DNA of 38,760 bases from Atractiella rhizophila (taxonomy: Eukaryota), in contig MU271617.1 of the NCBI GenBank assembly GCA_021432655.1, forward strand, positions 1 to 38,760, in the 5' to 3' direction. The notes below the pieces were generated by a model, which saw only the letters and a program-made list of their open reading frames with translations, was not told the origin of the DNA and ran no database searches. Below, in pieces: positions 9,100 to 38,465 of this stretch; within the stretch, counting starts at the first letter, position 1, and every line of letters starts with the position of its first letter. The position numbers were made by a program, and so were the translations under genes.

Positions 9100-9357
9100 C
9101 TAGAAAACGCCATCTTCTCCCCATTCTGCCATCCTCACACCCGCCAAATTGTTCTTCTGAAACATGATCAGGCCAACCCGCTTCTGTCGTCCATGGGGCT
9201 GCATGATCTCCACCGCTCCGTCGAGGACGAGGTTCAGGTCGCGATCGATGCAGACGAAGGTGCCGTGAAAGACGCGGTTGGAGGCCGTACTGACGATGAG
9301 CGTGTTGCCGATGAGGGATTGGAGGAAGTCGCGTGCTTGCGAAGTATTCGTGGACAT
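9100..9357 (-). CDS. MAK31: Sm-fold protein, most like NatC auxiliary subunit Naa38/Mak31
   Basis: 85 aa with Sm1 motif (LIGNTLIVSTASNRVFHGTFVCIDRDLNLVL) and Sm2 motif (RVGLIMF). GTFVC.D is typical of Naa38/LSMD1. Confidence 0.7.
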   Translation of the reverse strand: MSTNTSQARDFLQSLIGNTLIVSTASNRVFHGTFVCIDRDLNLVLDGAVEIMQPHGRQKRVGLIMFQKNNLAGVRMAEWGEDGVF

Positions 9358-9432
9358 GCTGATCCTCTGGCTGCTGATCCTGAAGCCTGTGATTGTGATT
9401 GGACTGGTCTTAGGAGAGTTTTGTGCTTTATA

Positions 9433-11817
9433 TGTAAATGAAAAAGTCGCAGGGTTACTACCACATGCCGCGTATGAAGAAGTGCTGCGAGAACAGTACC
9501 TCGTACAACTTGAGGAGGCAGCGCAGGGAAGGTCGTATTTCGTACTACCGGAAGCGAGGAGGGCCTACTAGCCCCTCCTTGAACCACCGCAGGTTCTGGA
9601 GCGGTAACTGCTGCTGGGTCGTCAGCAGGAAGCACAATACGAAACGCTGAAGACGCTCCCACATGAGGAAGTTAAGGCGGAAGCCGAGGAGGAAGAAGAG
9701 GTGGCAGAAGACGAGGACACGCCCTCGACTTCCCCGCCCACAACTCCTCCTCCGCCTCCTCCTTCTTCTTCGCAGAGGGGTAGGCTTAAGCTCCAACTGG
9801 AAGAAGCTGAGCCCTAGCTACGCTTACCACAGCTCTCCACCAAGACCTAAACCAATTCTGCCCTTCTTCGCTAAACTGGGCTGCACTCTGGAAACTCCTC
9901 CATGACATTGCTACTTCCGTCTTAATTAGAGGTGTGGTCTCTGTCCTCGCGGTCCCTGCATGCCTTCGTCGAACCAGTGGCCGTTGAGCAGGTTTCTGCT
10001 GCGTTGGGTTGTTCGAGCTCGGAGGGTTTGCCAAGCGTGGTACTTGTGGTGGTCGTTGAAGTGGTGTTCGCATTTCCGGTCTCTATCGAAAAGGGAGGAA
10101 GCTCTACTGGACGCTGAATAGCAACTAGAGCTCTGGCGGGTACCACATTACTTCCTGTCCCCAGTACTCCCGCTGCACCTTCCACAGCAAGTAGAACTTC
10201 AGCCGTAACACCTTCTTGAAGAACGGCTTTCCTAGCCAAAAACCTAGAAACCGCAAGCGCTGCATAAACCGCTTTCACAGCCGGTCGAAGAAGAGACCCT
10301 AAGGGTAGAGAAAACGCTCGAGCCGCGGCCTCAACTTGAAGAAGTACTCAGGTGCTGGCTGCATCACGAACGTCACGGTAAGCTAAAAGAAAACTGCTAC
10401 GTGGCAATTCCTACTCAGACTGCCCGACTTGTGCGCTTCGGTTTGTGTAGTTGCTGGGGCTGGTGGTAAACGGTTTCTTTTCTCTTTGTATGCTTAAATA
10501 ACAAGAGGGTGTAGGAGGGTCATTGCATCAGGGCTACTGGTTCAAGTAGCCGCTTGGATAAAGGAAGGCTCAGCTCCTCGTCAGGTGGCTGTGGTGCTTC
10601 CCGAAGCCGCCGTTCCTTGAACTGGAACGTAGCCCAAGCAACCCCAGCTGTTCTGGTCATCCCCCCTGGACTTGGAAGAGGTACAGCTAAGGTCTCGGAG
10701 GTTAGAGCTCGCGGTAGAAGTTAGGCAGTGGCCACGTTACCAGAGGCAACCACCACCCGTCCAGCATCATAAGCCCTGCCTTGAAAAAGTCCTCAGGTAG
10801 GACACGCTTCAGTCCGCGCATAGGAGGTCAGACATCCATTCTTTCGTTAATCAAAAACCTTCCTACCTTCTCCGGCTCTCTCTCTTGCTTGTCGTTCTTA
10901 CTGCTGCGGACAAGCCATTCGAAGACGGGCAGTTGGAGCATGAGCTGAGGCACTGGTGTAGAGGTAAGAACTACTCGAACCAGTGGAAACGGAAGAACTA
11001 CTAAAAGTGCGCGAGGCCAAGGAAGAGGCGCTATAGGAGTTCACGAAGGTAAACTCGTATGATGTCCGGTAGGTTAGTTGCAGCTCGGTCGTTTCCTTCT
11101 TCTGATGGGTGTCACTATTGGTATGGGCCCTTAACTCGAGGGGGTGCCACGCAGGCGCCCATGCTCACTGGAGGATTGGCGCTCTGCTCCCTTTCTAGCT
11201 CCAACTTTCTTAGGACTTCGGTTAACTGACGCGAAGGCCTAACCATCCACTCCTGAAACTACTCCAGGCCCAGACCGGTCTAGGGAGCGGACGCTGTGTT
11301 TCATTATGTAAAAGTAATAGCGTAGGGGTGAAAGCTTCCTTCGTTTTGCTGCATGGCTGAAGAAGCACAGGAGCATCTTCTGAAAACGGCTCAGAACTTA
11401 GAAGTTGAGACGGACCCACAAACAAGGTCGTGGCAACTACGGTCTCCATCGGAACCACCTCAAAGGAGGTTTCTTCCCCAAGAACAGCTCCTGGTTCTGC
11501 AAACGAGGGGAGACCATCTCCCATACACGACGACTCTCTGGCCTGTCTGGAGGCGGATGATGCTACTGAAACAACCTGTACGACTCGACCTTCATCGACC
11601 TTCGACCCCTTCACTTCACCAAAGCACCTCACTACTTTACGTGCTTACCCCTTCCTCGAAAATACGGGCCGACTTTAGCCAATGTTACGTCAAAGTGCAC
11701 ACTAGCGCTCAAACAATCGACTACAGGCCCTTATAAGTAGGCTGGCAATGGGCCTGCAAGCGTAGTTGTAGTAGTTGGACGAACGAATTGTGGTGGTGCC
11801 GATGATCGGATGATGAA
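9433..11817. pseudogene. Decayed, compositionally atypical island with stop-riddled reading frames (probable relic mobile or foreign element)
   Basis: Protein-like frames broken by in-frame stops (+ strand about 9440-9900: ARRAY*PLLEPPQVLER*LLLG; - strand about 11100-9920; + strand about 11350-11800). No GATC, high TpA, abuts an assembly gap. No recognisable domain; left boundary approximate. Confidence 0.55.
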
Positions 11818-12068
11818 NNNNNNNNNNNNNNNNNNNNNNNNNNNNNNNNNNNNNNNNNNNNNNNNNNNNNNNNNNNNNNNNNNNNNNNNNNNNNNNNNNN
11901 NNNNNNNNNNNNNNNNNNNNNNNNNNNNNNNNNNNNNNNNNNNNNNNNNNNNNNNNNNNNNNNNNNNNNNNNNNNNNNNNNNNNNNNNNNNNNNNNNNNN
12001 NNNNNNNNNNNNNNNNNNNNNNNNNNNNNNNNNNNNNNNNNNNNNNNNNNNNNNNNNNNNNNNNNNNN
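11818..12068. other. Assembly gap (251 N)
   Basis: Run of N bases. Confidence 1.
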
Positions 12069-12100
12069 GAGGCAGAAAGTTCAACTCCCTAAAGTCCCCT

Positions 12101-12535
12101 CTCCCTTATCGGAACCAAATGATGGACTCGACGATAAACGAAGAGAAACATGAACGATTATGCGCTTGCGGCTGGCGGACGAGTCGCAAATAGTAACTCA
12201 AGTCCCTTCCAAATCAGAGGAGGAGTATCGTCGCGGCCCGAAACTTCCTCACTTCAAACAGGCTCCAATACCTCCAAAGAGAGAATCGTGTGCGTTTCGT
12301 TGCTTGAATCGCACGGAAGCGAGCTTCTCGTAGGAACCAAACAAACGATCGAGAGATTCAGAGGAGTTCCTGCGAAAGTTGATTAGCGGAGGGGTTTTGT
12401 AGCGACAAGATACCAAGAGCGGCGCACAACCGATGATGGATATAGAGCTATCAGTTGATGCTCCATAAGTTGGTGTTTGGACCCTCGATCACGTGACAAT
12501 TCAACGAATCAAAGGCCTGCTTACTGCTTACATCA
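12101..12535 (-). mobile_element. Putative LTR retroelement 5' end: LTR (12120 to about 12468 or 12535) plus tRNA-Glu-type primer-binding site (12101-12117)
   Basis: Minus strand reads ...GAGTCCATCA-TT-TGGTTCCGATAAGGGAG: a CA end, 2-nt spacer and a TGG-initiated sequence complementary to a tRNA 3' end CUCCCU-UAUCGGA-A-CCA. Candidate inverted termini are TCCATAA (12462-12468) or CATCA (ending 12535). Confidence 0.6.
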
Positions 12536-13155
12536 CGTTTCCGTTGTCGCGTAGCCCTAAATCAGACGGGAGCCACTGTAGATCTTCCTTCGCCGGAGCC
12601 GCTGGGTGAGAAGAAGCGGAAGTAGGGGAAAGAACAGCAGGATAGTTAAATGATATCATGTTTGTCGATTCTGTTCACCCAACTTCTGGAGAGCACACTT
12701 CCTGTCCCAGAGACATGTGAGTTTGGCCTGTTTACTTCCGAGCGAAGGTATCACGTAAATCGTTGCTGTGTGGATCAAATCCCATTGCTCCTACATTCAG
12801 TTTTTTCAATGTTTTCTAGCGGGATCTTGCGCGATGTTTGTCCAGCTTCAAAGCAGTTTGCATCCTGACATGTGAATTCAAAAATTTCGATTAGAAGGAT
12901 AGTACCCCTCTTAACTCCTCTGCAGGGAGTTGAGATGGCGATCACCTATTCAACGATAAAGAAGGACACTTGTCATAGGAGAAGTCATAGCAGATACGAT
13001 GGACAGAACAAGCTTGGGGAAATAGATGAGATAGGCTTCAAATTGTAAGGATGGACGTGATTGAGGGTGCCAAACAACCGGATTTGAGCGTTACTCTCGC
13101 CTTACTCTGGTGTTTTCGTTTTGAGGCGCAACGACCATTGTCGTTCCAGGCCACC

Positions 13156-14153
13156 ATGGCCAGTCCATTTATTTCTCTAGTGCAGCTTGCACAAGTATTT
13201 TATGATAGGTTTGAACGTGTAAGTAAGCTTGAAATGCTTTTGAAAACGAGAGAGAACAGAAATCGAAGGCGCTAACACGATGACACTTTGCCTCTCGTCG
13301 TTCATTCTCTGCTCATGATGCAAATTACTCATTAAATGGGCTCTGCACAGGCTTACAACAGCACGGAAGACGTTTGCGAGCTCCTTGAGCAGCTGAAAAC
13401 GTTACTTGAGAATATTCGGCTCCTGGAACATATAGCTGGACACGAGTTTTCAAATATTATTGGGAAAGCAGCGGAACAGTATGCCAGGTAAGCTCCTTCT
13501 TGCGTGCTGAAAGGGCAGGTGTGAAAAAAAAATTACAGCCTGGTTCGACGACACGATGCTGCCTTCAACGAGTACGCCAAGTTGGGTTCACTCCGACGGG
13601 CTTTTAAAGTCTCTCAAATTGAGAGACATGTTAAGCGCGTTGGGAGTGACGTCTTTCGTATTTATGTCGAACTCAACGTGTGTATCCTCTTGCCGCAGAT
13701 AAGATCACTGAAGTGCACCAGTTCCGGCTCTCGATACTCGTTTTTCACAAAACATACGAAACGCGGAAACAGCAAAATACCATACCCGCACAGAATCAAG
13801 ATGAGCTCAAGGAACCTCGCGCCTTTCAGCTTGAACAAGCGAGAAGATCCCCTGAATGGTCAGCCCTCTTCCTGCGACTGCAGCGCATAATTGCTAGTTC
13901 GCCAGAATTGCAGGAGAAGCTCTCAGTGATTGCATCTTCTGAAACTGAGTGGCCAGTCTGTTCTTCCAACCCAAATTCCCTCTCTCAAGCCACAGATATA
14001 TCGAGTCCAAGCAACGCCTCAGAAACTTTGTTTCTGGCAGCAATTGGATTTTCATGCCAGCTAGTGGTGTGTTCATTGATTGCCCTCGGACTCATGATTT
14101 CAGGACATATATCTTCCAATGCGTCCCCTTCGTTGGCATTTGACCTCGATTAA
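13156..14153 (+). CDS. About 256-aa protein with N-terminal MLKL/HeLo-like four-helix-bundle domain and hydrophobic C-terminal segment
   Basis: GCCACCATGG start; exons 13156-13218, 13351-13487, 13539-13677 and 13722-14153 join in frame via GT-AG introns. MASPFISLVQLAQVFYDRFERAYNSTEDVCELLEQLKTL...LRRAFKVSQIERHVKRVGSDVFRIYVELNFRLSI resembles the MLKL N-terminal domain pattern (by eye). Confidence 0.62.
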
Positions 14154-16566
14154 TGGCTTTCAGTCTCAAACAATGCCACAATGTTTGATCTTTGTATGTT
14201 TGTTGTGTTGCTCTATGTGTTAGGTTTTTAAACATTCTTACTTAACGGTAGATTTGGTCTGGTATTATCATGTGCATCTTTAATTGATGTATTGGATAGT
14301 ATTGCAATGGAATCGCTTCGTGTTTCTCCAACATTTTCCGGCCGACCGGAATGATCGATGGAAAAGCCACGCAAATAAAACCAGCAAAGCAAACAGACAA
14401 AACATTAGATACAATGGCGTAATTGGTTTAAGAGTTTGAAAGGCATTTTGAGGGTGATAGGAACAGCTCTCTCATTCGTATAGGAAGGATCGGAGTATAT
14501 ATCCTTCTCCTTCTTTCACACCCTCTATCTTATCCTTAATTCCAGATTGAGAACGCTCCAAGAGTGGGTAGAGCGCTGGCTTGACAACACATGCTTGTGC
14601 AAGGACGACTGCTTGTGAATGCTCGGGATCGAATGCGAGAGCATACAGGTATCAAAGGATCGAAAAAGCATTCATTTTCTTTCTTAGCTCACGCTCATTT
14701 CCTATCACACCTTACGTTGAGAATCAAAAGGGCTGAGGCGACTTCTATCCCGTCGTGAACTACACTGAGTTGCACTTCGAATTTGGTAAAAAGAGTAAAA
14801 CTAATTCTTGAGTGGAAACAAGGAGAGCTGCACTTCTCTTCCCCAATTACTTGTATGCCACTCTGAAGAGGAAGCTTACTGAAAACACGCTTTGATAGTA
14901 ATGGTGCACAGAAGGGGCTTATCAGAGAGTAGAGAGTCAACGAGCGTTCACTTTTCTAGGTGCACACAGTGTCAAACTCCAAAACTACCTCCACACTCTC
15001 CTCCTCCTTTGGAGACAAATCAAGATATGCTTACTTCAGAAAACATCAGCATTAAAACAAAGATGAGAGAAGTCATCAAACTTGGGTAAGCTAGAGAGTT
15101 CAAGCCAATACTTCGCTAGACCGTACAAGTCAACTCCTCCTCGTTCCTTGTCCTGTTTTACTCTTTTAGTTTGTCTTGACCGAGAGGGCCAGTTTGAGCG
15201 ACACGACAAATCAAAACGCAGCCACAAGAGCGCGCGCTCCAGTGGCATTTGGCGTTGCCCATCTTGCGACTCTGTAGACCATCGAGAGAACAAAAGTATA
15301 CCAAACCAAGGTTTGGCAACCCTGAAACTATACGAGTCAAGCTGAACAGTGTCCGTGTGAGCTCTAGAGCGCTTTTTTGGAAGTTTAGAGCACAACATTT
15401 TATCCCTTAAGGCAAGGCTCGAACGACAACGGAGAAGCCCTTGAAATGCCTATGGAGTACTTCAACCGCTTCGCTATAACGTTCCATCACTGCGATATAT
15501 CACCATTTGAGGTCTTTTTATGACATCTCTTGATGTACATGCCAAGATGTCATTGTTCCTCCCGTCGCAGCCGTAAAGACGGTAACTCAGGATCACACAG
15601 GCAGCTCTCGGCTCTAGGCCCACAAGACCTCCAAGACAAAGAAACGTATAACAATATTGTAGCCACGATAAGCAGCCTCTTAATCCGAACGTTTAGTTAA
15701 TAACATTCCGTCATAACTCTTCTTATGGGTATGGGAGTAAGAGAAGTAGAGGTATTCTGGACGAGCGACGTTTCACTCTGCGATTTTTTGCGACGCAGGT
15801 TTTTCCTCGATGAACTACTTTGCATTGAAAAGAAAAATAGAACGCTCTTGCACTCCGTCACCGTTAAAAAGATGGTTGGGACGCACCTCAGACGTATTAT
15901 TGGGCTAGGCATCAATCGCTCTCAATCCGCAACACCCAATCAGAGCTCCTCTCCATCACTCGGAAACCTTGCTAAATCACCAAACAATACGCGGCAGAGA
16001 TGAGATCGAGAGAAGCGATAAGTGCAAAAGGGGGAACCTGTCTCAGCAGAAACAAGATCACCGCTGAAGTTGACGCACGTGCCGTATTCCTGCACTTTTC
16101 TTTTTCTGAAAAGAACCACTGGCAGTCATTCTCAAAACCCTGCTCAAAATTGCCTGTCTAGCAAACACCCAGTGAAAGATTTTGACCCAATGTCCACAAA
16201 TTTCTTTATTCCTTCACGTAAATGGATCGGATAGCGTGTATCTGTCACCGACAGCGTCCATGAAAGGACAACTCAATTATGGCTTCTATCAGCTTCTGTT
16301 ATGTCGATCCACTCGTGCTCATCTCATCTCTGAAACGCTCTTTGATTCGAGCCCTATATAATTATACGAGGAAGGTTTCACACGGTTCAGGTTCAGGTTC
16401 ACGGTTATTCGAATATGTTGCACAAATGGCCCGGAATGGGTGAAGTAGCTGATGGAACACTGGAGGCTGGAAACGGAAGGCCAAGAAGATAAATGACATG
16501 TCCCATCGTTTTACCCACACCTCACACTCAAACGCAACTGCAGCCCTTTGAGCAGAGAATCGCTCC

Positions 16567-18666
16567 ATGGCGTCAAGGACTTTCAAGTCGCTCACAGCCT
16601 CTCGCTTTCTCTTTTTGCTAACGATTCTCAACATCATTCTCTTCCTTGCACGGCTCAAGGGCCTTCCGGGTTACGAAGATCAATGGCAGGAAGATCTCGA
16701 TGAAGGAGCCTTAGATGGTTCAGTGGAAGGTGATTATCAGCCTGAGGTCATCTGAACTCGAGTGGCAAGATCTGACTTGCCGAGGAAGATGTAGGAGTCG
16801 AATTGAAATCAAGACACGACGACCAACTTCGCCTTTCGCCGGGTCATTCAGAGCGATTCTCTTCTTCAAAGGGAGACACCCTCAGTTCTCCCTCAATCAT
16901 TTCTCCAGGTTTGTCTTTTCACGTCTGAAGCTTATCCGGCCCATCCCAGTACGTTGAGCTTATTCCTCCAATTCCAGAGAGAATCCCATCCTGCGATCCC
17001 GCCGACTCCCTTTCCAATCCGCGCACCATCGCGTATGGTCGTGATGCAGTTCATTTATCGCTCGCTCATGAAGGGACGGGAAATCGGGTGCGGAGGTTCT
17101 TGAAGAAGCTGAGAAGCGGCAAGGGGGTGAAGATTGGAGTATTGGGAGGTTCAGGTAGAGTCACCTCTCGTTCCGCACCGATATTGAGAGCTGAACACGT
17201 GTTTATCTTCATTTCAGTAACGAGAGGACATGGCTTACAGAAAGAGGAAGGCGGGGTGATGAAGAATGCATGGCAATATAGAATCTTCGAATGGATGAAA
17301 GAGCAGTTTCCGGACGCTCAGCACGAGCTGTTCAATGGACCAGTGCCAGCCGTGGTCGTGTACGTCTTCAACTCCGTAGAGGGAGATTGATGCCAATATG
17401 AAGAGAGGGCAGACAATATTTCTCCGTTTGCTTCTCCCAGCACATACCCGTAGATGAGGTAGATCTAGTCTTTGTACGGGCTCCTCGTTTCCTCCCTGTC
17501 TTTTCTCTCATGGTCTTTCTGGATCAAGGTTGAGCTAGACATCAACTCCCAGCGTAGTGACGAAGCCTTTCGCGCATACGATTCATTATATCGCTCACTC
17601 CTCTCCCTCCCTCAATCTCCCGCCGTCATCGCTATTTCTACATTTGCGCTCGTCTTCTCTGAAATCGGTACGGGCTGGCCATCTATGCTTCCCGTGGCGC
17701 AATACAATGACATTCCCATCATCACCATCCGGAATTGGCTTCTCCCTCACCTACTTCTGCATCCGTTGGATAAGGATATACTGTTCTTCAATGAGAAACT
17801 CGACCATTGGGATAATCGACATATCAATCACGTGGGACATCAGGTCTTAGCGGATTTCACAATCCTTTATCTGCAAAAGCAACTTTGTGAGTTGGAGTTG
17901 AGAGAGAACGAAGTCTGGAGGGAGAAGGTGGAGAGGCCAGGCACTGAGTGGACGAATGTCAATACTGCCGAGTTTGGGGAGGTCCCAAAGGTTGATTTTC
18001 CGCTCAATGTTTTTGTCCATCACGCTGACAACTTGCTTTCAGATTAGACTGACCGACCGCTTCCCTTGGGAATCCGATTCACCCATGATCACGTCAGAGG
18101 AAATGACCCAGCCTCTCTGTCGCACGCTGGCATCCGAACTCGACCCACTTGTACCTTCTTCCCCTCTTCCCTCCTCAGGTACCACGGACGTTACCGAAGG
18201 TGGGTCAAGTTCCCATTCGCCTCCCATCATAGGATGGACACAAGAGCGTATCGACGACAAACCATTCTTCGTCTCCCGTGTTCCTTTCACGAGGATCAGC
18301 TTCAGCATCTCCGTTTCTAAACCCGGCGACGCGAAGATAGCTCTGGGACAAGGAGGGGAGGTGGGACTGTTCATTTGGCGTACACCCGTCACTGGGGACG
18401 AAGGCATGGGCAAGGCTGCTTGCTGGATCGAAGGCGTGCATGAGGAGCCGGAGGAGGGATGGGGAGGGAGAGACTATTTGAACTGGGAAGGTGCAGTCGT
18501 GGATGGATATAAAAGTGAAGGGTTGAAGTTGGTCGAGTGGACGCGACCTTTGAGGTTCAAGAGAGCCGTGAAGGAAGGAAATCATACATTACATTGTATG
18601 CTCCTTCCTTTTACAAGCAGCGGGGGGATAGAGTTCAGGATTCAGGGGATCACCGTGATGAGTTGA
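16567..18666 (+). CDS. CAP64/CAS3-like SGNH-fold type II membrane protein (multi-exon)
   Basis: N-terminal TM, KIGVLGGSVTRGHG (block I), NGPVPA, DLVFVELDIN, RSLLSLPQSPAVI, AQYNDIPIITIRN, DNRHINHVGHQVLAD (DxxH). Confidence 0.8.
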
Positions 18667-18814: not shown

Positions 18815-20777
18815 CTACTTCTTCCCATTTTTGTCACCTTCCTTATCCAAAAAAGGGTCATTGTCCTGAAACCCAACTGCCTCCTCACCCTCCTTCTCTC
18901 CCACCTTTGGCTTCTTAGCGATCGGTTTCCCAACCTTAAATTTAGCGACGAAGAAGCCATCCATATTGAGCGTATGCGGCCAAAACCGTCTTGTTTTCTT
19001 CAACGACTCGTCGAAGTGCTTCCCTCGGAAGTTGACGAATCCCTCTCGACCAAACTCTAGGCCGGTATCCACAAGCACTGCATGTGGACGCTTCTTTAAT
19101 GCGTAGTCGACGACCGCTTCGTCCTCTTCAACCGTAAGGGAGCAGGTACTATATACAACGTATCCGCCGCTGGTGGAAGTAGGAGCGACGGAGTCGATGG
19201 CGGATAAGATGAGCTCTTTCTGGAGGTGGGTAAGAAGAGCAAAGTCTTTTTCGGACTTCACCAACGGCTCATAAGCATTAGGTAGAGAGGGAAAGCGAAT
19301 GACGTACTTTGCTCATCTTCACACTTTGATCTTTGCTGATGACGCCGGTTCCACTGCACGGCGCATCGAGCAAAACTCTATCGAATCCACCAAGCACCTT
19401 CGGGAACTCTCGTCCATCATAATTGCTCACGACGACATTCCGACATCCCAACCTAGCCACATTCGCAGCCAAGCTCTTGCATCGTTTCTTGCTCGCATCG
19501 TTGGCGAAGATTGTCCCAGAATTTTGCATGAGAGCAGACATGTGAGTTGCTTTCCCTCCTGGTGCTGAGGACATGTCTAATATTCTTTCGTTTGGAAGCG
19601 GAGCAAGGGCGAGGACGGGAAGGAAGGAGGAGGCGGATTGGAGGATGTAATGACCTGCGAGGTATTCTGGTGTCGCACCTGTTGCGAGATTCAGTCTTTA
19701 CTCCGCTTTTTGAGGGAGTAGTTCAGGCGCACCGATAGGGATGCTGCTCTCGAATATTTGCAGACCCTCTTTGGTCCACTTTCCCAATCGGTTCAAGCGT
19801 CACTCCGCGATTTATCAAGGTCTGCGCCAGGTCTCTTCGCTTCGTTTTCAGGGTGTTCGTGCGGATTGTGACTGGCCGTTGAGTGTCTGACGAATCGAAG
19901 AAAGGGACAACTTCCTCAATGGGTAGGAGTTGGAAGAGCTTGTCGGCTAGATAAGTGTTATAGCCATAATACTCGCAAATATCGGAGATCAATAATTCGG
20001 ACATTTCATTCCTTGACCTGTTGGGCAGTTTCAGCGTTTGCGAGCAAGCGAAAACGAAAGAGGAAACAACGGACCGTCCTCCTTTCAGTTCTTCGTAATC
20101 TGGATTCTTCCAATCCCTCAGCACCTTCACCGAGCTCTGCATCCGCATCTTCACAAACTGGAGATCCGGAATATTGCCTCCCTTGGACCGGCGCAAGCTG
20201 TCGTCCAACGGCCCATTGGCATGCGGGCTTTCATCGTCGTCCATTTCTTCCTCGGGTTGCTGGAACATCTCTAACGTCTCGGAAGGTTTGGAGTTTTTGG
20301 CGGACGTTGAAGCGCCTGGTGCCTCCATTTCTGCATCGGATGAAGAAGCTTCTCCTTCCTGTTCAACCTCGCCGTCAACAGGTAACGAATCAACCCATTC
20401 GTCCGTCTCCGGAAGGCCATCATCAGGTTCAATGAGATCTTCTTCATCAAAAAGAGCCCTTCAAGGGAGAGCTTCATTTAGCTCGAAATCCTACCAGTAA
20501 CGACAAAACGAAAAATGGCTCACTCTCGATCCCTCTCAAGCCCATCTCCTCCATCTCCATCCTCAAACGCCTCATCGTCCCACTCATCGTCCTCTCCCGC
20601 CTTCTTCTTTCCCTTCCCTTTGCCAGTGACTTTCGCAGCTCCAAGCGAAGTCTTCCGCTTCTTTGCGTTGCTAGCCCCGTCTGTAGCTGGCGCTTTTCGC
20701 TTTTTCGAACGAGGATCGGGCTTGGTGCTCCCGAGTGGAGCCGGCGAGGGCTGCTTCAGACGTGCTTTCCGTCCCAT
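18815..20777 (-). CDS. NOP2: 25S rRNA cytosine-C5 methyltransferase Nop2 (multi-exon; apparent frameshift at about 19781)
   Basis: YYGYNTYL, RPVTIRTNTLKTKRRDLAQTLINRGV, GATPEYLAGHYILQ, LDMSSAPGGK, FDRVLLDAPCSGTGV, VYSTCS, NMDGFFVAKFK. Confidence 0.96.
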
Positions 20778-22060: not shown

Positions 22061-23775
22061 TCACTCTTCCTCTTCAAAAGCCGAATAAACGACCGCCGCC
22101 CACTCCTTCATCTCCCTCACCTCCGCCAACGCCTCCACCCACTCATTCGGTATACTCTGCACCATCTCCCTACTCTGTCTCGCGACAGTCGGGAGCAAAC
22201 TAGCGAGTCTAACAGACTTCTCCATCTCCATCTCCCTCCCTCCCACCTCCTGAAACCTCACTCCCTTCTTCGCTCCCACCGCATCCCAACTCCTCACCTC
22301 CTCCTCCTCCCCCTCATGTCTCTCCGCCGGTGGACTCCGGAATACAGGTTCTATCGATTTGAGCAGTGTGTCGAACGCTTTGTCGATCAGGAGGGAGGAG
22401 ACGAGGGAGAAGTCGGGCGAGTCGAGAAAGTCGCGGGTTTCGGAGAGCAGGGAGGAGAGGGAGGGTGTGAGGACGCAGTCCGGGGGAGAGAGACCCGAAA
22501 GATAGAGAGTTGAGGATTCGAGGGAAGGAGGAGGGAGGAGGAAGGAGGAGAAAGAGAATGCGGTGGAATCTGGGTTTGTTTCGACTAGGTGTCGGATGCG
22601 GAAGAGCAGTGTAGAGAGCTCCGAGTAGCGCAGGGGTGCCTTCAGAGGTAGACTGAACTCAGAAAGAGGAATTAGATTGGTTGTTTTTGATGATTGAAGG
22701 GAGTGGGAAGGACGTACCTCCCGATCACTTCCTCTGTTGCCTGACGCACTCGACTCTCCACTTCCCTCCATCCCCTATTGACCAACCACCAACTGAGCGT
22801 CAAATACTGTCTCTCCGTCCTCGAATCCACCCTCCTTCCCTCGCCCAATCCTCCCTCCTCTCCAACGCCAACTTCACCTTCACCTTCTGACGGCGCAGAG
22901 TTCATAGCGACAACGGAATCGAGGTAAGCGAACCGACCGAGGATGTTGAGTTGGAGATGGGTGAGGAGGAAGAGGAGGACGAGGGAGTAGGAGAGAGTGA
23001 GTGGTTGGATGAAGGAGAGGAGCTTGAGGTCGTGCCAGAGCTCCGCTTTCGTCTTGCTCGTCCCTGTCTCTGTCGCTGCTTCTTCCAGAGACGAGGAGGG
23101 AGGGATGGGTGAGGATGAACGAGAGCGTTTTCCAGGAGATGGATGGGGGAAGGAAGTAAGAGGCGGAGGTGGGAGAGACGCCGTGGATTCTTCCATGTCA
23201 TTCGACTCTTCATTTCCATTCGGCAGCCCATTCACATGCTGCTCCTCTTTCTCTTTCTCCTCTCCCTCTCCCACCTCTGCTTCAGTCTCCGCCTCCGCCT
23301 CATCCCCATTGACCAACACTGTGGACTCATTCACCAACCGTTCCCTCTCTTCCTCTTCCCTCCTTATCCGCTCCTCCTCCTCCTTCTCCCTCAACATCCG
23401 CCTCTGTCTCTCCCCCACCGCTCTAATCTCAGCCGTGACGGCTTCGACATCACACTCCTCCAACACCTTCCCACCCAGCGCCGGCAACAAAGCGAGGACG
23501 GTGAAGAGACAATCTTCCTGATTCTGCTGAAACCGTCTCCTCAGACTATCGCCCGTTCAATCCAAGTCAGCATTCCAGCGTTGCCAAACGCAAACGGAGA
23601 GAATGAACGAGAGTTAGTAAGACACGCACTTTTCTTTGCCCGCCTTCTCGGATTGGAGGCGCTGGGATAAGGAAGAGAATTTGGACTTGCCCCAGGAGAA
23701 GAGGAGGTAGGAGGAGCCAGTGAGGAGGAGCAGGGTTTGGAGGACGGGCGGAGGGGAAAGGAGGAGGGAGGTCAT
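22061..23775 (-). CDS. PEX3: Peroxin-3 (three exons)
   Basis: N-terminal TM, KENLRRRFQQNQEDCLFTVLALLP, KAELWHDLKLLSF, LTHLQLNILGRFAYL, QYLTLSWWLVNRGW, RLASLLP, AAVVYSAF. Confidence 0.94.
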
Positions 23776-24851: not shown

Positions 24852-25146
24852 CTTCGGAAAGTGGACTCGGTGGAGTGATTAAAAGTGAAAAACTGCAACT
24901 GTTAATATATAGTCAGTAAGTATTCTTTCTCGCTTGTTCATAGGGATGGACTAGGGTATTGGGGTGGGAGGTGGCACCTTTTGGAAGTGGAAGGAAGGTG
25001 AGAAGAACGTCGTCGTTGATTCCGCCGTCTAAGAAAGACCAAACAACGCCCAAACACGACCAATTCGTCCAACACCTGACGCGAACAAACAAACGACCAG
25101 CACGCAGTCATTATTATTCGTTGTTCTGTTCTTTGGAGAGGTTATC

Positions 25147-27352
25147 ATGGTCTCCTCCTCCCTGACCGCTACCCCAAACGCAAAACTAACCGAGCGAATC
25201 GACACACTCCAACTCAAACATGAGCTCGCCCTCCTCCTTCCCGAATACGCCGGTCTCGTCTATTGGGACTCCCTCAAGGCTTTCATGAACGCAAAGATTG
25301 GGAGGGAAGAATGGGAGAATAGAGTGAGAGGCGTGTTTGGTGGATTGAGGAGCGAGGGAAGAGAGAAGGCCGGTCAGTGTTTTGTCTCTGGCTCGCTTTG
25401 CGTCGCTTTGCGTTGGTGTCGGTTCATGGCATGAAGCGGGGAGGATCTCTATCTTGCTTGAACGTTTGAATCATATTGTGTGCCTCATCGAACGCTCTAT
25501 CGTTAATAAGACTGTTTCATTGCTGCTAAAAGGCACATTCTCTACCAAACGAGACTCCGCATATCCTCATCGCAAACAAAGACCACTACTCTACACAGAG
25601 CCTACTGGTGTATCTGAAGACTAACCAAATTCCAACAGTGGCGCTCCACAACCGCCTCCTCCTCTCCATCCTGCACAACGCCTCCCTGCCCACTCCAAAT
25701 CCCCCACCCATCCGACACATGGGCTTCTCCAAACGCAAGCGTTCTCTCGCCGACGAGCTCGCCAACGGCCCCTCCTCCCGCTTCAACAACACCAACCTGC
25801 TGGTGGAAGGGGAAAGAGAACCGAAGCGACGGGCGGTGGCGAGCTTGTCGAGGAGGGAGCGGGAGCGGTTGAGGGCTGTGGAGGCACCATTAGTTGGGGC
25901 GGGGGATAAGGAGAAGGGCGCTGCGGTTGCGACTGCTGTTGCAGTGGGAGGTGATGGAGAGGGAGGGAAGGAGGGTGAGGAGAAGAAGAAGGATGAGGTG
26001 GCGAAGAAGAAGAGGACTAAGAAGTTACCGTTGCCTCCTGCTATTGATGTACCCTGTTCGTGTTTCCCCTCTTCTTCTCCTCACCTTTCTGTTTGTCTGT
26101 CAGGATGATGCTTATGCTTTGGTTTCGCTATGGGAACAGCCCAGTTTCAGGATTTGAAGAAGACGGAACTGGCGAGGGAGATGAAGAATGTGCCTGATCA
26201 GGCTAACCTTCAGAAGAGGATGGCTCTGGTGGCAGTTGAGCATTCCTTGCTGCATACACCGGATGCGACCGTAGCACATCTCGGGCACACAGCTATGGAG
26301 GTACGAAATCCCCCCTTCCTTCCGTCATGACGAGCTCATTGAGCGCTTTACAGACACATCTCCGCTCTTTCCTCGAACACCTCGTCTCTGCAGCGCGCTT
26401 GCAAGAGTATACTTCGAATGGCAGCAGTGGTGGGGAATTGGCGCTATTGCCTGGTCCAGAGGCAGCAAAAAAGTTGGAGGAGAAAGACATCGACCTGGTC
26501 GACCTCTCTGTCTTGCTTACCATTTCACCTCATCTTTACGTTCGACCAACGGTCGCTGCAGTGGAGAGGGTGATGATGACGAAAGACCTAGGGGTGGATT
26601 CTTCATCTTCCGGGGATGAAGATGAAGAGGAGGAAGAGAGTGGTGAAGAGAGTGAAGAGGAGGGAGGAGGCGGGAGGGGAAGGAATGCGAAGAAGCTTGG
26701 ATGGGTCGTCAGTGAGGAAATGAGGAGGGAGGCGGAGAGCGATAGGAAGACGGTAGGTGGTAAAACGCCGTCGAGGACGCCAGCAGGGTCGAGGATTGGA
26801 GGTGGGAAGGGAGTGAATGGGGAGAAAGAAGGGGAGAGGAAGAAGAACGATTATTCGCGTTGGATTCCTACCGACCATCGACCTTCTCTCAAAACTTCAC
26901 ACTCATTGCAGAACCTTTCTTCCGCTCCTCAGACCGACGGTAACAGCACTCAGAATGGCGATAAGGGAGGAGCGACGAGCAGTGTGCACGTCGCGAATGG
27001 GCAAGCGAACGGACTGGTGGATGTGGCAATGGCGAAAGTGAATGGGTTCGCTGAGGAGAAAGAAAAGGAAAAACAGAAGCAGGGGACAGGGTCACACGAA
27101 GACTTGATGCGCGCCGAACTCTTTCCCGAACTCGAACCACCATCCAACTCGCACCAATCAAAGTCGAAATCTCACGAAACTGATGGTGATTCAGACGCTG
27201 AAGGAGAACGTCCATCTGCTACTGGGGACGGTAGGAATGGGAATGGAACGATCAACGCGTCGTCGATGGTTGGTGTGATGGGAGGTGGGAAGGGTGGTGA
27301 CATTCTCAGGTTTCTTCATGAATATGTCAGCGTTCCCAATGGAACGATCTGA
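25147..27352 (+). CDS. ADA1: SAGA subunit Ada1/Hfi1 (Tad1)-like protein (multi-exon; 3' end could extend to about 27432)
   Basis: RIDTLQLKHEL...YWDSLKAFMNAKIGREEWE, LHNRLLLSILHNA and histone-fold region VPDQANLQKRMALVAVEHSL...AMETHLRSFL. Confidence 0.82.
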
Positions 27353-32838: not shown

Positions 32839-33115
32839 ATTTCTCATTCAACTTCGATCCTCCTACAATACATTTTCCTGCTTCCCATACATCCCCAGTT
32901 GTGATCCGCCGTTGAGTTTCGTTGTACAGTTCAATTTAGAGGTCTCATACGTATAAGAAGGTACTTCAGTTGTCGTTCACTTTGAGCTTTCAAAAACCGT
33001 CAGTCTTTGGTCTTTCTGTTATTAGTGTTTAGCTCGCAGTTTCCTCCCTTCTTCAGCTTACCCAACTCAAGTATCCTACGCTTCTCCTACCCCAATCTCC
33101 ATGCTCTGCTACGTT

Positions 33116-33725
33116 TACGTGGACTTAACTCTAACTCGCCTTCGTGTGAACAATTCTCTACAGTTTATGCATTCATTTATTCTTCAAATGTAAGGTCTGC
33201 CTAACCTCCTACGTACATCCTCTGTCGATTTCGATAAGAAGATTCGATTTGTATCCACGCAGTCTCAGTTATTTCTTTGATCTTTTGACTTTCGGTTTTG
33301 TTTCTACCTGAAAAGTCTCAAAGCGGTTTCGGTTGTGATTGTATCTACTTCCTTCGGCCTTTTTCCACCTTTTCGCCATTGTATCACTTACTGCAGACAT
33401 AAGCAATGAGATATTTCCATTACGTGGACTTAACTCTAACTCGCCTTCGTGTGAACAATTCTCTACAGTTTATGCATTCATTTATTCTTCAAATGTAAGG
33501 TCTGCCTAACCTCCTACGTACATCCTCTGTCGATTTCGATAAGAAGATTCGATTTGTATCCACGCAGTCTCAGTTATTTCTTTGATCTTTTGACTTTCGG
33601 TTTTGTTTCTACCTGAAAAGTCTCAAAGCGGTTTCGGTTGTGATTGTATCTACTTCCTTCGGCCTTTTTCCACCTTTTCGCCATTGTATCACTTACTGCA
33701 GACATAAGCAATGAGATATTTCCAT
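33116..33725. repeat. 305-bp direct tandem duplication
   Basis: 33116-33420 and 33421-33725 both run TACGTGGACTTAACTC...GAGATATTTCCAT and look identical by eye; TT microhomology at the junction. Confidence 0.95.
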
Positions 33726-34926
33726 TTTTTTCAGTACTTTATCGCAGGCCGGGGTGCAAGCGTGGAAGCATGGCTCGTTCAAGCTGAAGCAGTATCATCT
33801 GAAGGAGCAGAGATCTGAAGACGCCACTTCACTTCACCGTGACTTTGACAATGTTGACTACATGTCAGACTCGTGTTAGGCGTCCGTCTATTGTCAGTCT
33901 AATCGATGGAAAATGAATGCTAGTCACGAATGATTTGCTCATTTTGTTCGTTTTTAGCTAAGGAGCACTTGTCGAGACCTTCGGTTTCTTCTTCACCTGG
34001 ATTAGAAAACAGACAGTCCTATGATTTGACGCCTCCAAGTCTAAGTACACTAGTATATCTTCCCGTTCTGGAATTCTGGAGGGCTTTAGATCTTTAGAGG
34101 GCAGAGGGTCAATATGGCATGCAGGCCAGCACATGCTACCCCTTACTCTCTTTACCCAAGCAATGCACTTCAGTTTCAGCATTCTCACACTTTTCGCGAT
34201 GTAGATCGTCGTTTTTCGTTACCATCGTTTATTCTAGATCGACAGGGGGTTGCAATAAAGAGCATTCACATCTTCACAGCTCAAATATCTCAATGACAAG
34301 AATTGACCATAAATCTCATTCTAGCGATGGTGCTCAGATCTCGCTCCGTTTGGTGGGTCTTTCATGACCATAACCCTCTTTGCGACCAGGATGTTATAGT
34401 CAGAGATTCCTTCTCAGGGATGGCAGAAACCGTACAACATCGAACAGAACCATCACACGCCACCCATTCCCTTTCTCATTTCTAATCCCTTATAGGACAG
34501 ACCTGCTTAACGCGTCGTCACCACGGTTAAGGTAAGAAGGAAATCCACCGCGATCCAGCCGCGACCAGCTGACATCATGGTCTGTCGATCTCCCAATCAT
34601 CTTCTCAGAGTCGCGTCGAGGTGGCGTCTTCGGCAACAACATAAAAGGGTGGAACCACTCGCTCTCATCCCGTTCCTCGAGCGAAAAAGTCAGGGAAAAT
34701 GTGTTTGGAAAGTCAACGAGCAACAGTTTCAAGGGTTGGTTGGAAGGTTCGCGAAAGAAGTCGGAGAGATCGTGGAATGGGATTGCGCAGCTCTAATGGA
34801 TTGGATTTCGAAAAACCACGACCACCTCTCCTTCTTCCCTGCTTTCTTCCCTTTTCTTTTTCCATCCAACGCCAATCGAGAGAAACTTAACTTTCGGTGT
34901 ATATTCTGTCAGGGGACGAAAAGACG

Positions 34927-36252: not shown

Positions 36253-36362
36253 ATGATTGCTCATCTTCATAATCCCCCTTCCTTTTTTTTCCGCGATTCT
36301 CTCCTCTCTTGCTCCTACCAAAATTTCTACTTTTCCCTCTTCTTCGTCATTTTCACGTAACA

Positions 36363-38465
36363 ATGGTGGAACCCGTACTTACCCCTCGTCCTTTCCCATT
36401 CCGTCGCCACTCTTCAGCCCAGTTTCACCACCAAAACCAACCTGAAACTCCTTCGAGATTCCTCGAGGCCCTTGGGGTGGCGGATTTCCACAAAACTACC
36501 TCTTCACAAGTCAACTCCAATCTTTGGGACGTCGGTCTCACCCCTTCCATCTTTGGACCTGGAAGGACGACAGGACTAACTCCGTTTGTCGGCGCACCGA
36601 CGCAGAAAGAGGTTGACCCTTTCGATTATCACTTCGCGAAGAAGTCGAGGGAGCGAGAGTTGGCAACGGCACAAAAGGCCGACGATATCTTCAGCTATCT
36701 CGATCTTCACACACCTGTTTTAGAGAAGGGTCCAATCAACTGGATGGGATTCGACGGCACTGCGACTGCAGGGGTGAAAAGACCGAGGGCAGAGGAAGAG
36801 CCGACTCTTGATCTGGCTGGCGACAACATTCTCAATCTTCAACCAAAACGTCCAAGGCTGGAAGGAGATCAGCCCGTCCAGGATCCTACGCTACTTCAAC
36901 AGCTTCAGTCTCGTCTGAGACCTGTCAGGACCGATACGGATTCTGCTTCCTCGTCCGACGCACAGTCGCTTCTTTCTTCTACAAGGAAGAGCACAATGAG
37001 CCTCACGACTATGGATCCTGAGTCCCAGAAGCCTACTCCGCTCAATAACATTAAACCCCAGCTCTTCGATCCTCTTGATCCTTCCAACTCTCCTGTCTCG
37101 GTTTCTAACCCTGTCTCTGCCGACCCATCAATGATTCTGTATCCTTCATCTGCTCAAAGTGTACCCCAGGAACTTGTTATTTCCGGCGAGATGCTAGCAT
37201 CCCTATCAGGGAAACCTCAGCCTCAGCTCCCTGTCACTGTAGCCGCCTACTCTGCTAATCTTCACGCTACGACGGCAGCAACGCTCAACATGTACGCTCC
37301 CGGCACAGCTGGTCCTCTCCCAGGAGCAGCTGGCGGACCTTCAACTTTGGTGATCAATGGCCAGATGGCGGGAATGACAGGTCCACAAAACGCAGTTCCT
37401 GCTACCTATGCATATCAGGCAGCTCCTCAAAGCCTAGACCTCGCTCTTCCTCAACAACCCATGGTAATGAACCCTCGACTTTCCCTTCCCTCCAATATTC
37501 CAACTACCAGCGCTTCGGTAGCTGCGACCATGGTCGCTACTACCACAGGGAAGAAGTCGACTCGAAGGGCGACCAGCCCGGCTGTCAAGAGTAAATCGGC
37601 GGGATCGTCGAAGAGCAAGAAGAAGAGTAAAGATAAGGAGAAGAAGGTGGAGAAGGAAGAGGAAGTTGATCCCGAAGAAGAGAAGAGGAAGCAATTTCTG
37701 GAGAGGAATAGGATTGCGGCTTGCAAGTCGAGGCAGAAGAAGAAGGAATGGGTGTCCAACCTGAGCAACAGTACGACTTTTATCCATACTTTCTGACATA
37801 AATTTGTTGACCCTGTTTTTGTAGTGGCGGAAGATTTGACGACCAAAAATCTCAGCCTGCAAAACCTCGTCAACAGTCTCAGAGAGGAGATCATTCAACT
37901 TCGAACTGAACTGTCGAGTCAAGCAGGATGCGATTGTCAGCATGCAAAACAGTTCTTGCGGCGGGAACAGCAGCGTCTTTCCCAAGTGGCGCCAACACCA
38001 ATGGTACAAACTATCTCCATTCCTGCTCCTCAACATGTCGATCCTTCGCTATATCACCCTCACCCGCCCCCTCCAGCTCCCTACTCGGCGTCGAGCAATT
38101 CTAACGACGCCTCTCCTATGTTCATTGCATCCCCAGCGACCACCGATGTTGGATCAGTCCCGCATGGTCATTTCGAGGGACAACCGCCACGATCTGCTCG
38201 AGGCTCCATGTCGATCGCCATGCCTGGGCCCATGTTCAACAACTCGCTACCGGTGCGACCTTCGTCGGCTCCCCCAACCACTCCGTCTGACCTAAGACTT
38301 CTCGGAATCCACAACCGAGATTATTTTGCTCAACCTACCCAGGCACAGTTGCAACAGCAACATGGTTACGTCCAGCCTGATGGACCAAGGTTCTCTCCAA
38401 GCAAATGGCTGTCAAACTTTGACTTCGACAATGTAGATCCATTGGTTCAGGCTCAAGCTCATTGA
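36363..38465 (+). CDS. ATF/CREB-family bZIP transcription factor (Atf1-like)
   Basis: EEKRKQFLERNRIAACKSRQKKKEWVSNL, intron 37771-37824, then the zipper (MAEDLTTKNLSLQNLVNSLREEIIQLRTEL...GCDC); GLTP and TGLTP Thr-Pro motifs in the N-terminus. Confidence 0.9.

Follow-up and report, generated by a model that had tools for sequence, protein, structure and literature searches.

The window analysed here, a stretch of 38,760 nt from contig MU271617.1 of Atractiella rhizophila, contains at positions 13156–14153 (+) an MLKL-like candidate gene that is real, occupies a single locus and is conserved under purifying selection. The gene consists of four coding exons, and its 256 codons (256 aa) form an open frame after splicing. 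The head of the encoded protein (residues 1–121) is probably a divergent MLKL/HeLo-like fold, as judged from sequence features, and a hydrophobic helix close to the C-terminus probably fixes the protein in a membrane as a tail anchor, according to its hydropathy. The best reading of these data, which we offer tentatively, is a membrane-tethered MLKL-like effector or channel that would be activated in trans.

Gene structure and comparison of the two haplotypes

The coding region is organized as follows:

13156–13218 (+): coding exon 1, with the start codon and predicted helix 1 (residues 1–21); GTAAGT donor, phase 0 into exon 2
13219–13350 (+): intron 1, 132 nt, with in-frame stops; contains the ATG used by the public model P0001
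13351–13487 (+): coding exon 2, with helix 2 and the start of helix 3; 2 synonymous changes between the copies; covered by an X2 contig
13488–13538 (+): intron 2, 51 nt, with in-frame stops; 5 substitutions and 2 unaligned bases between the copies
13539–13677 (+): coding exon 3, with the end of helix 3, a possible short cross helix and most of helix 4
13678–13721 (+): intron 3, 44 nt; 7 substitutions between the copies
13722–14153 (+): coding exon 4, with the end of helix 4, the second helical region, the linker, the hydrophobic helix, the tail and the stop codon

The start codon is found in a Kozak-type context (GCCACCATGG), and the three introns (132, 51 and 44 nt) are of the GT..AG type. 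A second genomic copy, located on contig C179, has 96% DNA identity and an intact reading frame, with splice sites and stop retained in both copies. Since this contig is colinear with that of the window (94.6–97.4% over the alignable parts of window 4094–26053), the second copy represents the other haplotype of one locus and not a paralog. The four-exon frame and strong start context described in an earlier note on this DNA were therefore borne out.

The differences between the two copies are concentrated in the introns, where 227 nt carry 22 substitutions, compared with 13 substitutions over 771 nt of exon (Fisher p 2.5e-7); intron 1 presents 10 substitutions plus indels. Of the exon differences, eleven are synonymous and the other two change an amino acid (pN/pS 0.058; binomial p 8e-6). 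Exon 1 has 1 synonymous change and exon 3, which is covered by an X2 contig, has 3; exon 4, covered in part by X1 and X2 contigs, has 5, together with both amino-acid changes (L/V and L/I), which are conservative and lie inside the hydrophobic tail. All 7 differences in the bundle (residues 1–125) are synonymous (p 5e-5), and the tail is the least constrained region, with 2 synonymous and 2 non-synonymous differences (p 0.26).

Searches of the same genome with the DNA, exon 3, exon 4 and the public model returned no copy beyond the two haplotypes, so that the paralog count is one locus at a depth where few candidates are scored and distant paralogs are missed. The gene had been described as missed as a unit, which does not hold for the C179 copy: a public model of 240 aa (P0001), labelled as a hypothetical protein of Atractiella rhizophila, is already present. 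This model, which is itself a prediction, splices out intron 2 and starts at an ATG within intron 1, and is therefore without helix 1. An imperfect inverted repeat with 25-nt arms, 76% complementary, is present within exon 3 (13593–13643) and may be due to chance.

Transcripts of the locus

Contigs from X1 and X2 reach a depth of 2–4 over the locus. Neither run is recorded as RNA; X2 was treated as such only because it contains spliced joints, and the RNA status of X1 is only a guess. Two features are added upstream of the start codon:

12558–12716 (+): upstream untranslated exon, from X2 contigs 12558–12696 and 12617–12716; 5′ end undefined
12717–13149 (+): putative 5′UTR intron, from sequence only; conserved in C179; acceptor AG 6 nt before the start codon

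With the upstream exon, the gene has at least five exons. The X2 contig that covers 12617–12716 joins on to 13351, and the junction 12716/13351 is GT..AG, with a GTGAGT donor at 12717 that is retained in C179. The position of the AG ahead of the start codon means that the upstream exon could also splice to exon 1.

The same X2 contig, with a depth of 2.85, skips exon 1, retains intron 2, carries a G>T change at donor position +5 and ends with 17 loose letters past 13677 that correspond to the start of exon 4. It confirms intron 3 and the acceptor of exon 2 (13350), and the isoform that it represents, by skipping exon 1 and keeping intron 2, cannot encode the MLKL-like protein. The junctions proposed earlier were thus recovered in part: inclusion of exon 1 and removal of intron 2 were not seen, with no junction into 13150, between exons 1 and 2 or between exons 2 and 3 in the X1 and X2 contigs. 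A further suggestion, a short intron at 14064–14103, is weakly opposed by an X1 contig, possibly of DNA origin, that runs across this interval without a gap.

Repression by upstream ORFs was also considered and dropped because the frames of the upstream ATGs, which are out of frame with the gene, differ between the haplotypes. The low-depth contigs of X1 and X2 show variants absent from both assembled copies at 13492, 13904, 13912, 13925, 14010 and 14066. One of these variants affects donor position +5 of intron 2, and two others alter amino acids beyond the bundle; they represent a further haplotype or errors. Another X2 contig (14371–14565), about 220 nt past the stop codon, may correspond to a long 3′UTR or to a separate transcript.

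Genomic neighbourhood

The genes identified around the candidate are mostly housekeeping genes with Pfam matches:

9100–9400: LSM domain
9408–11817 (probably also 12069–12110; no strand assigned): reversed fumarate reductase-cytochrome b5 gene, context outside the MLKL-like gene
16929–18666 (+): multi-exon gene resembling CAP64-like SGNH hydrolases by motif; 3 of its ORF pieces without Pfam match
18815–20460: RsmB/F-type RNA methyltransferase
22061–23556: Peroxin-3
25033–26108: SAGA-Tad1
36273–37796: weak bZIP

The candidate had been assigned to an accessory block close to mobile-element relics, and neither part of this description was sustained. The region 9408–12110 of the window at first had no counterpart in C179. 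When window 9399–11817 is reversed without complementing, it yields the fumarate reductase-cytochrome b5 gene that the other haplotype carries (G000:C179:66830-69247), with a match of 98.5% over 2423 nt and the Pfam domains FAD_binding_2 and Cyt-b5. Because the backward reading restores the gene, this 2.4 kb segment is an assembly error; a haplotype-specific, idiomorph-like block at 9408–12110 was rejected, and the supposed accessory block is an artefact within a colinear housekeeping neighbourhood. As this case indicates, stretches of the assembly that look "accessory" can be artefacts with housekeeping genes concealed in them.

As for mobile elements, no transposon Pfam family was found in the 99 ORF pieces scanned (56 + 43), and the flanks (12070–13150 and 14160–16900) are present only as the two haplotype copies each, in a search that skips very common words. 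No trace of a kinase or NACHT domain was detected in the gene or its flanks by comparison with 80 kinase and NACHT loci of the genome or with Pfam. Farther along the window, 33115–33726 holds an exact 307-nt direct tandem duplication, whose perfect identity suggests either an artefact of the assembly or a duplication of very recent date.

Organization of the predicted protein

The protein can be divided into four segments followed by a short polar end:

13156–13745 (+): residues 1–121, probable MLKL-type four-helix bundle, from Atlas features, amphipathic helices 2–4 and the 7 synonymous and 0 non-synonymous changes
13803–13934 (+): residues 141–184, second helical region, helical in a low-confidence model; candidate brace-like regulatory helices
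13938–14024 (+): residues 186–214, S/N/P-rich linker, coil in the model and probably disordered
14025–14102 (+): residues 215–240, hydrophobic non-amphipathic helix of 26 residues; probable tail anchor

The amphipathic helices, second helical region, linker and hydrophobic tail that the earlier note had described are all present. Compared with shuffled sequences, amphipathicity is marked for helices 2, 3 and 4 (p 0.021, 0.005 and 0.010), and helix 1 gives p 0.075. Helix 1 is predicted by hydrophobic moment only, and helices 2–4 also appear in the structure models (pLDDT 42–59), including those encoded by exon 2. In the region where a cross helix (hM) would be located, the models break after helix 3, and the next segment continues into helix 4. 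The linker contains 9 S, 3 N, 3 P and 0 G in 29 residues.

The best 19-residue Kyte-Doolittle mean of the C-terminal helix is 2.27, a value reached by 43 of 2000 shuffles, and its hydrophobic moment is 0.13. Both allele changes in this helix preserve its hydrophobicity, and 16 polar residues follow it up to the C-terminus. No hydrophobic signal was found at the N-terminus, where the first 19 residues average only 0.78. By hydropathy, the protein therefore has the layout of tail-anchored proteins with a cytosolic head, in which a signal peptide is absent and a single hydrophobic helix lies close to the C-terminus, which raises the membrane anchor from possible, as first suggested, to probable.

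Probable relationship of the head to MLKL

The Atlas language-model search with residues 1–112 of P0001 returned as top matches two small clusters of fungal proteins that have no Pfam family in common (0.95 and 0.93). The cluster at rank 3 (0.92) has MLKL_N in 22% of its members, that at rank 16 (0.86) in 57%, and the next matches belong to DUF7708 (0.85) and MCAfunc (0.84–0.86). These three are the only families named among the 30 matches, 19 of which are without a common family; 8 of the 10 best matches having a family share a family or clan. The search with the whole protein found a basidiomycete cluster with MLKL_N (26%) at 0.90, which is evidence of the same type and not independent. On the scale of these scores, shuffled proteins reach 0.95 once in 100, a rate not measured for protein parts. 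The structure arm of Atlas named no MLKL family.

The profile searches gave best E-values of 0.12 in Pfam and 0.099 in NCBIfam, both for unrelated families, and no match in PADLOC. The Pfam profiles MLKL_N, HeLo, PigL_N/Helo_like_N, SesA and RPW8 did not match P0001 or the single exons, none of these queries holding the whole domain, and RPW8, MCAfunc and SNARE profiles did not match P0001. Scanned exon by exon, the genome gave no match to MLKL_N, this gene and the control included, and the scan with MLKL_N, PigL_N and DUF7708 produced nothing or noise only. The single MLKL_N candidate elsewhere in the genome was discarded, as it sits in a HEAT-repeat-like gene, and so was the single DUF7708 candidate, in non-coding-looking DNA, both according to their translations.

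The sequence searches covered 1.8–5.8 billion proteins. No relative was found by phmmer over 1.84 billion representatives, and the word searches with exon 3 (11 candidates) and with residues 6–175, near-length (150) and longer (849), recovered only the public model of this gene. None of the 849 longer candidates (421–2000 aa) was related at E<=10, in a search that is weak according to the tool's own note. Likewise, 0 of 203 pattern matches in JGI metagenome contigs were confirmed, and no relative was present among PDB sequences. As no relatives were found, an alignment could not be assembled.

The single-sequence models of P0001, which is without helix 1, have pLDDT values of 42.1 and 58.6. 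Fold searches with these models retrieved generic bundles only, with best Z of 9.5 and 10.8, where values under about 13 are noise for bundles. Foldseek gave no match at E<=0.001, and MLKL was absent among the listed fold matches of the models.

Since the other tools gave nothing specific, it is the language-model features that carry the assignment of the head. The length and helix layout are compatible with an MLKL-type bundle, with three long helices in exons 2–4. We also consider that the spacing of hydrophobic residues in helix 1 and that of the basic-aromatic stretch linking helix 3 to helix 4 resemble MLKL. Thus, the MLKL/HeLo-like four-helix bundle claimed earlier stands as probable by these features, with helices 2–4 recovered in the models, but neither the fold itself nor a match to a Pfam, NCBIfam or PADLOC profile of MLKL or HeLo was obtained with queries that held only part of the domain.

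NLR and kinase repertoire of the genome

The genome presents an expanded NLR family, with 52 NACHT matches, 41 of them over the cut-off. A patatin motif occurs in 24 of the 30 NACHT loci inspected (L010–L039), with TPR-like repeats downstream in those that were read. None of the 52 matches is located on C438 or C179, and no NLR Pfam domain was found in the window ORFs scanned. In addition, no head similar to that of the MLKL-like protein was seen in 30 of the 52 NACHT matches or in 50 loci or stretches around 144 kinase matches. By analogy with other systems, the patatin-type NLR family is a candidate trigger for the MLKL-like protein.

At the kinase loci on G000:C70, C171, C16 and C130 (L077–L080), a PAS-domain kinase gene, presumably Rim15-like, occurs in several copies that are almost identical. 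One of the copies has internal stops and adjoins an apparent hAT-type transposase fragment.

Proposed function and alternative explanations

According to the reading that we tentatively prefer, the tail helix would anchor the protein in the plasma membrane or in an endomembrane. The bundle would be suspended from a flexible linker and kept closed by the second helical region. A trigger would then come in trans, in the form of clustering, cleavage or binding by a sensor whose gene lies elsewhere, such as a member of the large NLR family. The copies would oligomerise, helix 1 would enter the bilayer and an ion-conducting pore would form, leading to death of the hyphal compartment or to signalling. 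The steps beyond the anchored bundle are an inference by analogy with other systems; oligomerisation, helix 1 insertion and pore formation are described for MLKL and HET-S (PMC12881547). If the head has the MLKL-type fold, pore or death activity would be rather likely by the same analogy.

A bolder version of this reading supposes a pre-tethered MLKL-type executioner, tail-anchored and fired in trans without kinase, fused NTPase or amyloid, in which the start codon and the pore-forming helix share one small exon, so that skipping this exon would turn the gene off. Such a mechanism is unlikely. If true, it would be a fourth control mode for fungal four-helix bundles, and the protein would become a candidate downstream killer for the patatin NLRs of Atractiella rhizophila.

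Among the alternatives, we regard as somewhat unlikely that the protein has the MLKL-type fold and is not an executioner, being instead a membrane-tethered adaptor, a decoy, an inhibitor of bundle proteins or an MCA-like, non-lethal calcium channel. The single locus, the housekeeping neighbourhood and the near-zero amino-acid difference between haplotypes suit a steady job over an arms race, although executioner domains can also be conserved. The MCAfunc clusters in the Atlas list point in the same direction, and the same fold need not imply cell death (PMC9815663). However, an orphan with no relatives detected among the 1.84 billion representatives would be odd for a basic channel.

An unrelated tail-anchored helical bundle, for example an adaptor for trafficking or tethering whose three-helix head is syntaxin-Habc-like, would make the MLKL likeness generic, and is unlikely. 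The best matches of the three-helix model include the Habc domains of syntaxin 6, Sec20, syntaxin 1 and Vti1b (Z 9.1–10.1, rmsd 1.7–2.6, 83–93 residues), and a helical head with a C-terminal anchor is the layout of SNAREs. Nevertheless, these Z values are within the noise for bundles and come from a model without helix 1, the Atlas features favour clusters of the MLKL clan, and the protein has neither a SNARE Pfam match nor the relatives expected of the conserved SNAREs. The segment before the anchor also differs, since a linker with prolines (29 residues, S/N/P-rich) takes the place of the 60–70 residue coil that directly precedes the anchor in SNAREs. If the fold or the activity fails, the protein would be an ordinary orphan membrane protein.

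Bundles of the MLKL-like type usually form the N-terminal domain of an NLR or a kinase (PMC12881547, PMC9815663), which would suit a truncated remnant of a larger gene of this kind, now decaying or repurposed, as would the weak constraint on the tail; given the absence of relatives, an old truncation is a possible origin. This explanation is nonetheless improbable, in view of the frame, splice sites and stop that are intact in both copies under purifying selection, the lack of kinase or NACHT traces, and the absence of a longer relative in the search, weak by its own account, of 849 candidates. That the locus is transcribed and the full-length protein rarely or never made, as the low depth and the non-productive nature of the sole informative contig might suggest, is very improbable, since the pN/pS of 0.058 and the intron-enriched divergence require a translated product.

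Comparison with known systems

The closest described proteins are the BaMLKL, of which a survey reported hundreds of stand-alone basidiomycete members, almost none of which has an amyloid motif (Wojciechowski et al. 2022, PMC9815663); about 500 were scanned, few had such motifs, and 241 homologs had up to 400 aa (PMC9815663). The protein studied here resembles them as a small basidiomycete protein with a probable MLKL-type bundle, no NTPase and no recognisable amyloid motif. A short cross helix (hM) between helices 3 and 4 is given there as a feature of the bundle (PMC9815663). On the other hand, BaMLKL has an extra N-terminal helix (hG) before helix 1 that is absent here (PMC9815663), and BaMLKL is not known to have a C-terminal hydrophobic anchor. 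No link at the sequence level between this protein and BaMLKL was demonstrated.

As in animal MLKL and plant MLKL/Pm13, the probable bundle is at the extreme N-terminus and is followed by a second helical region, here a candidate brace. In MLKL proper a kinase or pseudokinase domain comes next, whereas this protein has a linker and a membrane anchor, and the frame ends at 14153 in both copies. All-in-one fungal NLRs carry NACHT or NB-ARC after the bundle, and this was found neither in the gene and its flanks nor in the window ORFs scanned.

Like HET-S and HELLP, the protein would be a two-part effector in which a head formed by the bundle is joined to a short controlling region at the C-terminus, and it would need a trigger in trans. 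Those systems have a C-terminal amyloid motif and an adjacent NLR; here the tail is a hydrophobic helix and no NLR is adjacent. A simple pattern check detected nothing of the G-x-Q/N-x-G type, and glycine is absent from the linker, which contains 3 prolines. The statement in the earlier note that no kinase, NACHT or recognisable amyloid partner is visible in or beside the gene was supported. Plant RPW8/HR proteins and MCA channels also work at membranes by means of an MLKL-related bundle that is fused to neither an NTPase nor a kinase; to our knowledge, both lack a single-pass anchor at the C-terminus preceded by a disordered linker.

The same note had proposed an undescribed activation architecture. 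The lack of NLR, kinase and amyloid partners is not new, because singular BaMLKL have been reported by the hundreds (PMC9815663), and it is the anchor that remains unusual: no tail-anchored fungal MLKL-like protein was found in the literature by titles and abstract openings. What seems new is the anchor at the C-terminus, the presence of such a protein in a lineage unnamed in the main text of PMC9815663, from which the word stem "Pucciniomyc" is absent, and possibly a skippable helix 1 exon, as seen in one contig. It is an open question how the solitary MLKL-like proteins of basidiomycetes are restrained and then fired (PMC9815663). A small, single-copy and conserved example that bears a membrane anchor instead of an amyloid or kinase tail would offer one answer that can be tested by a few truncations.
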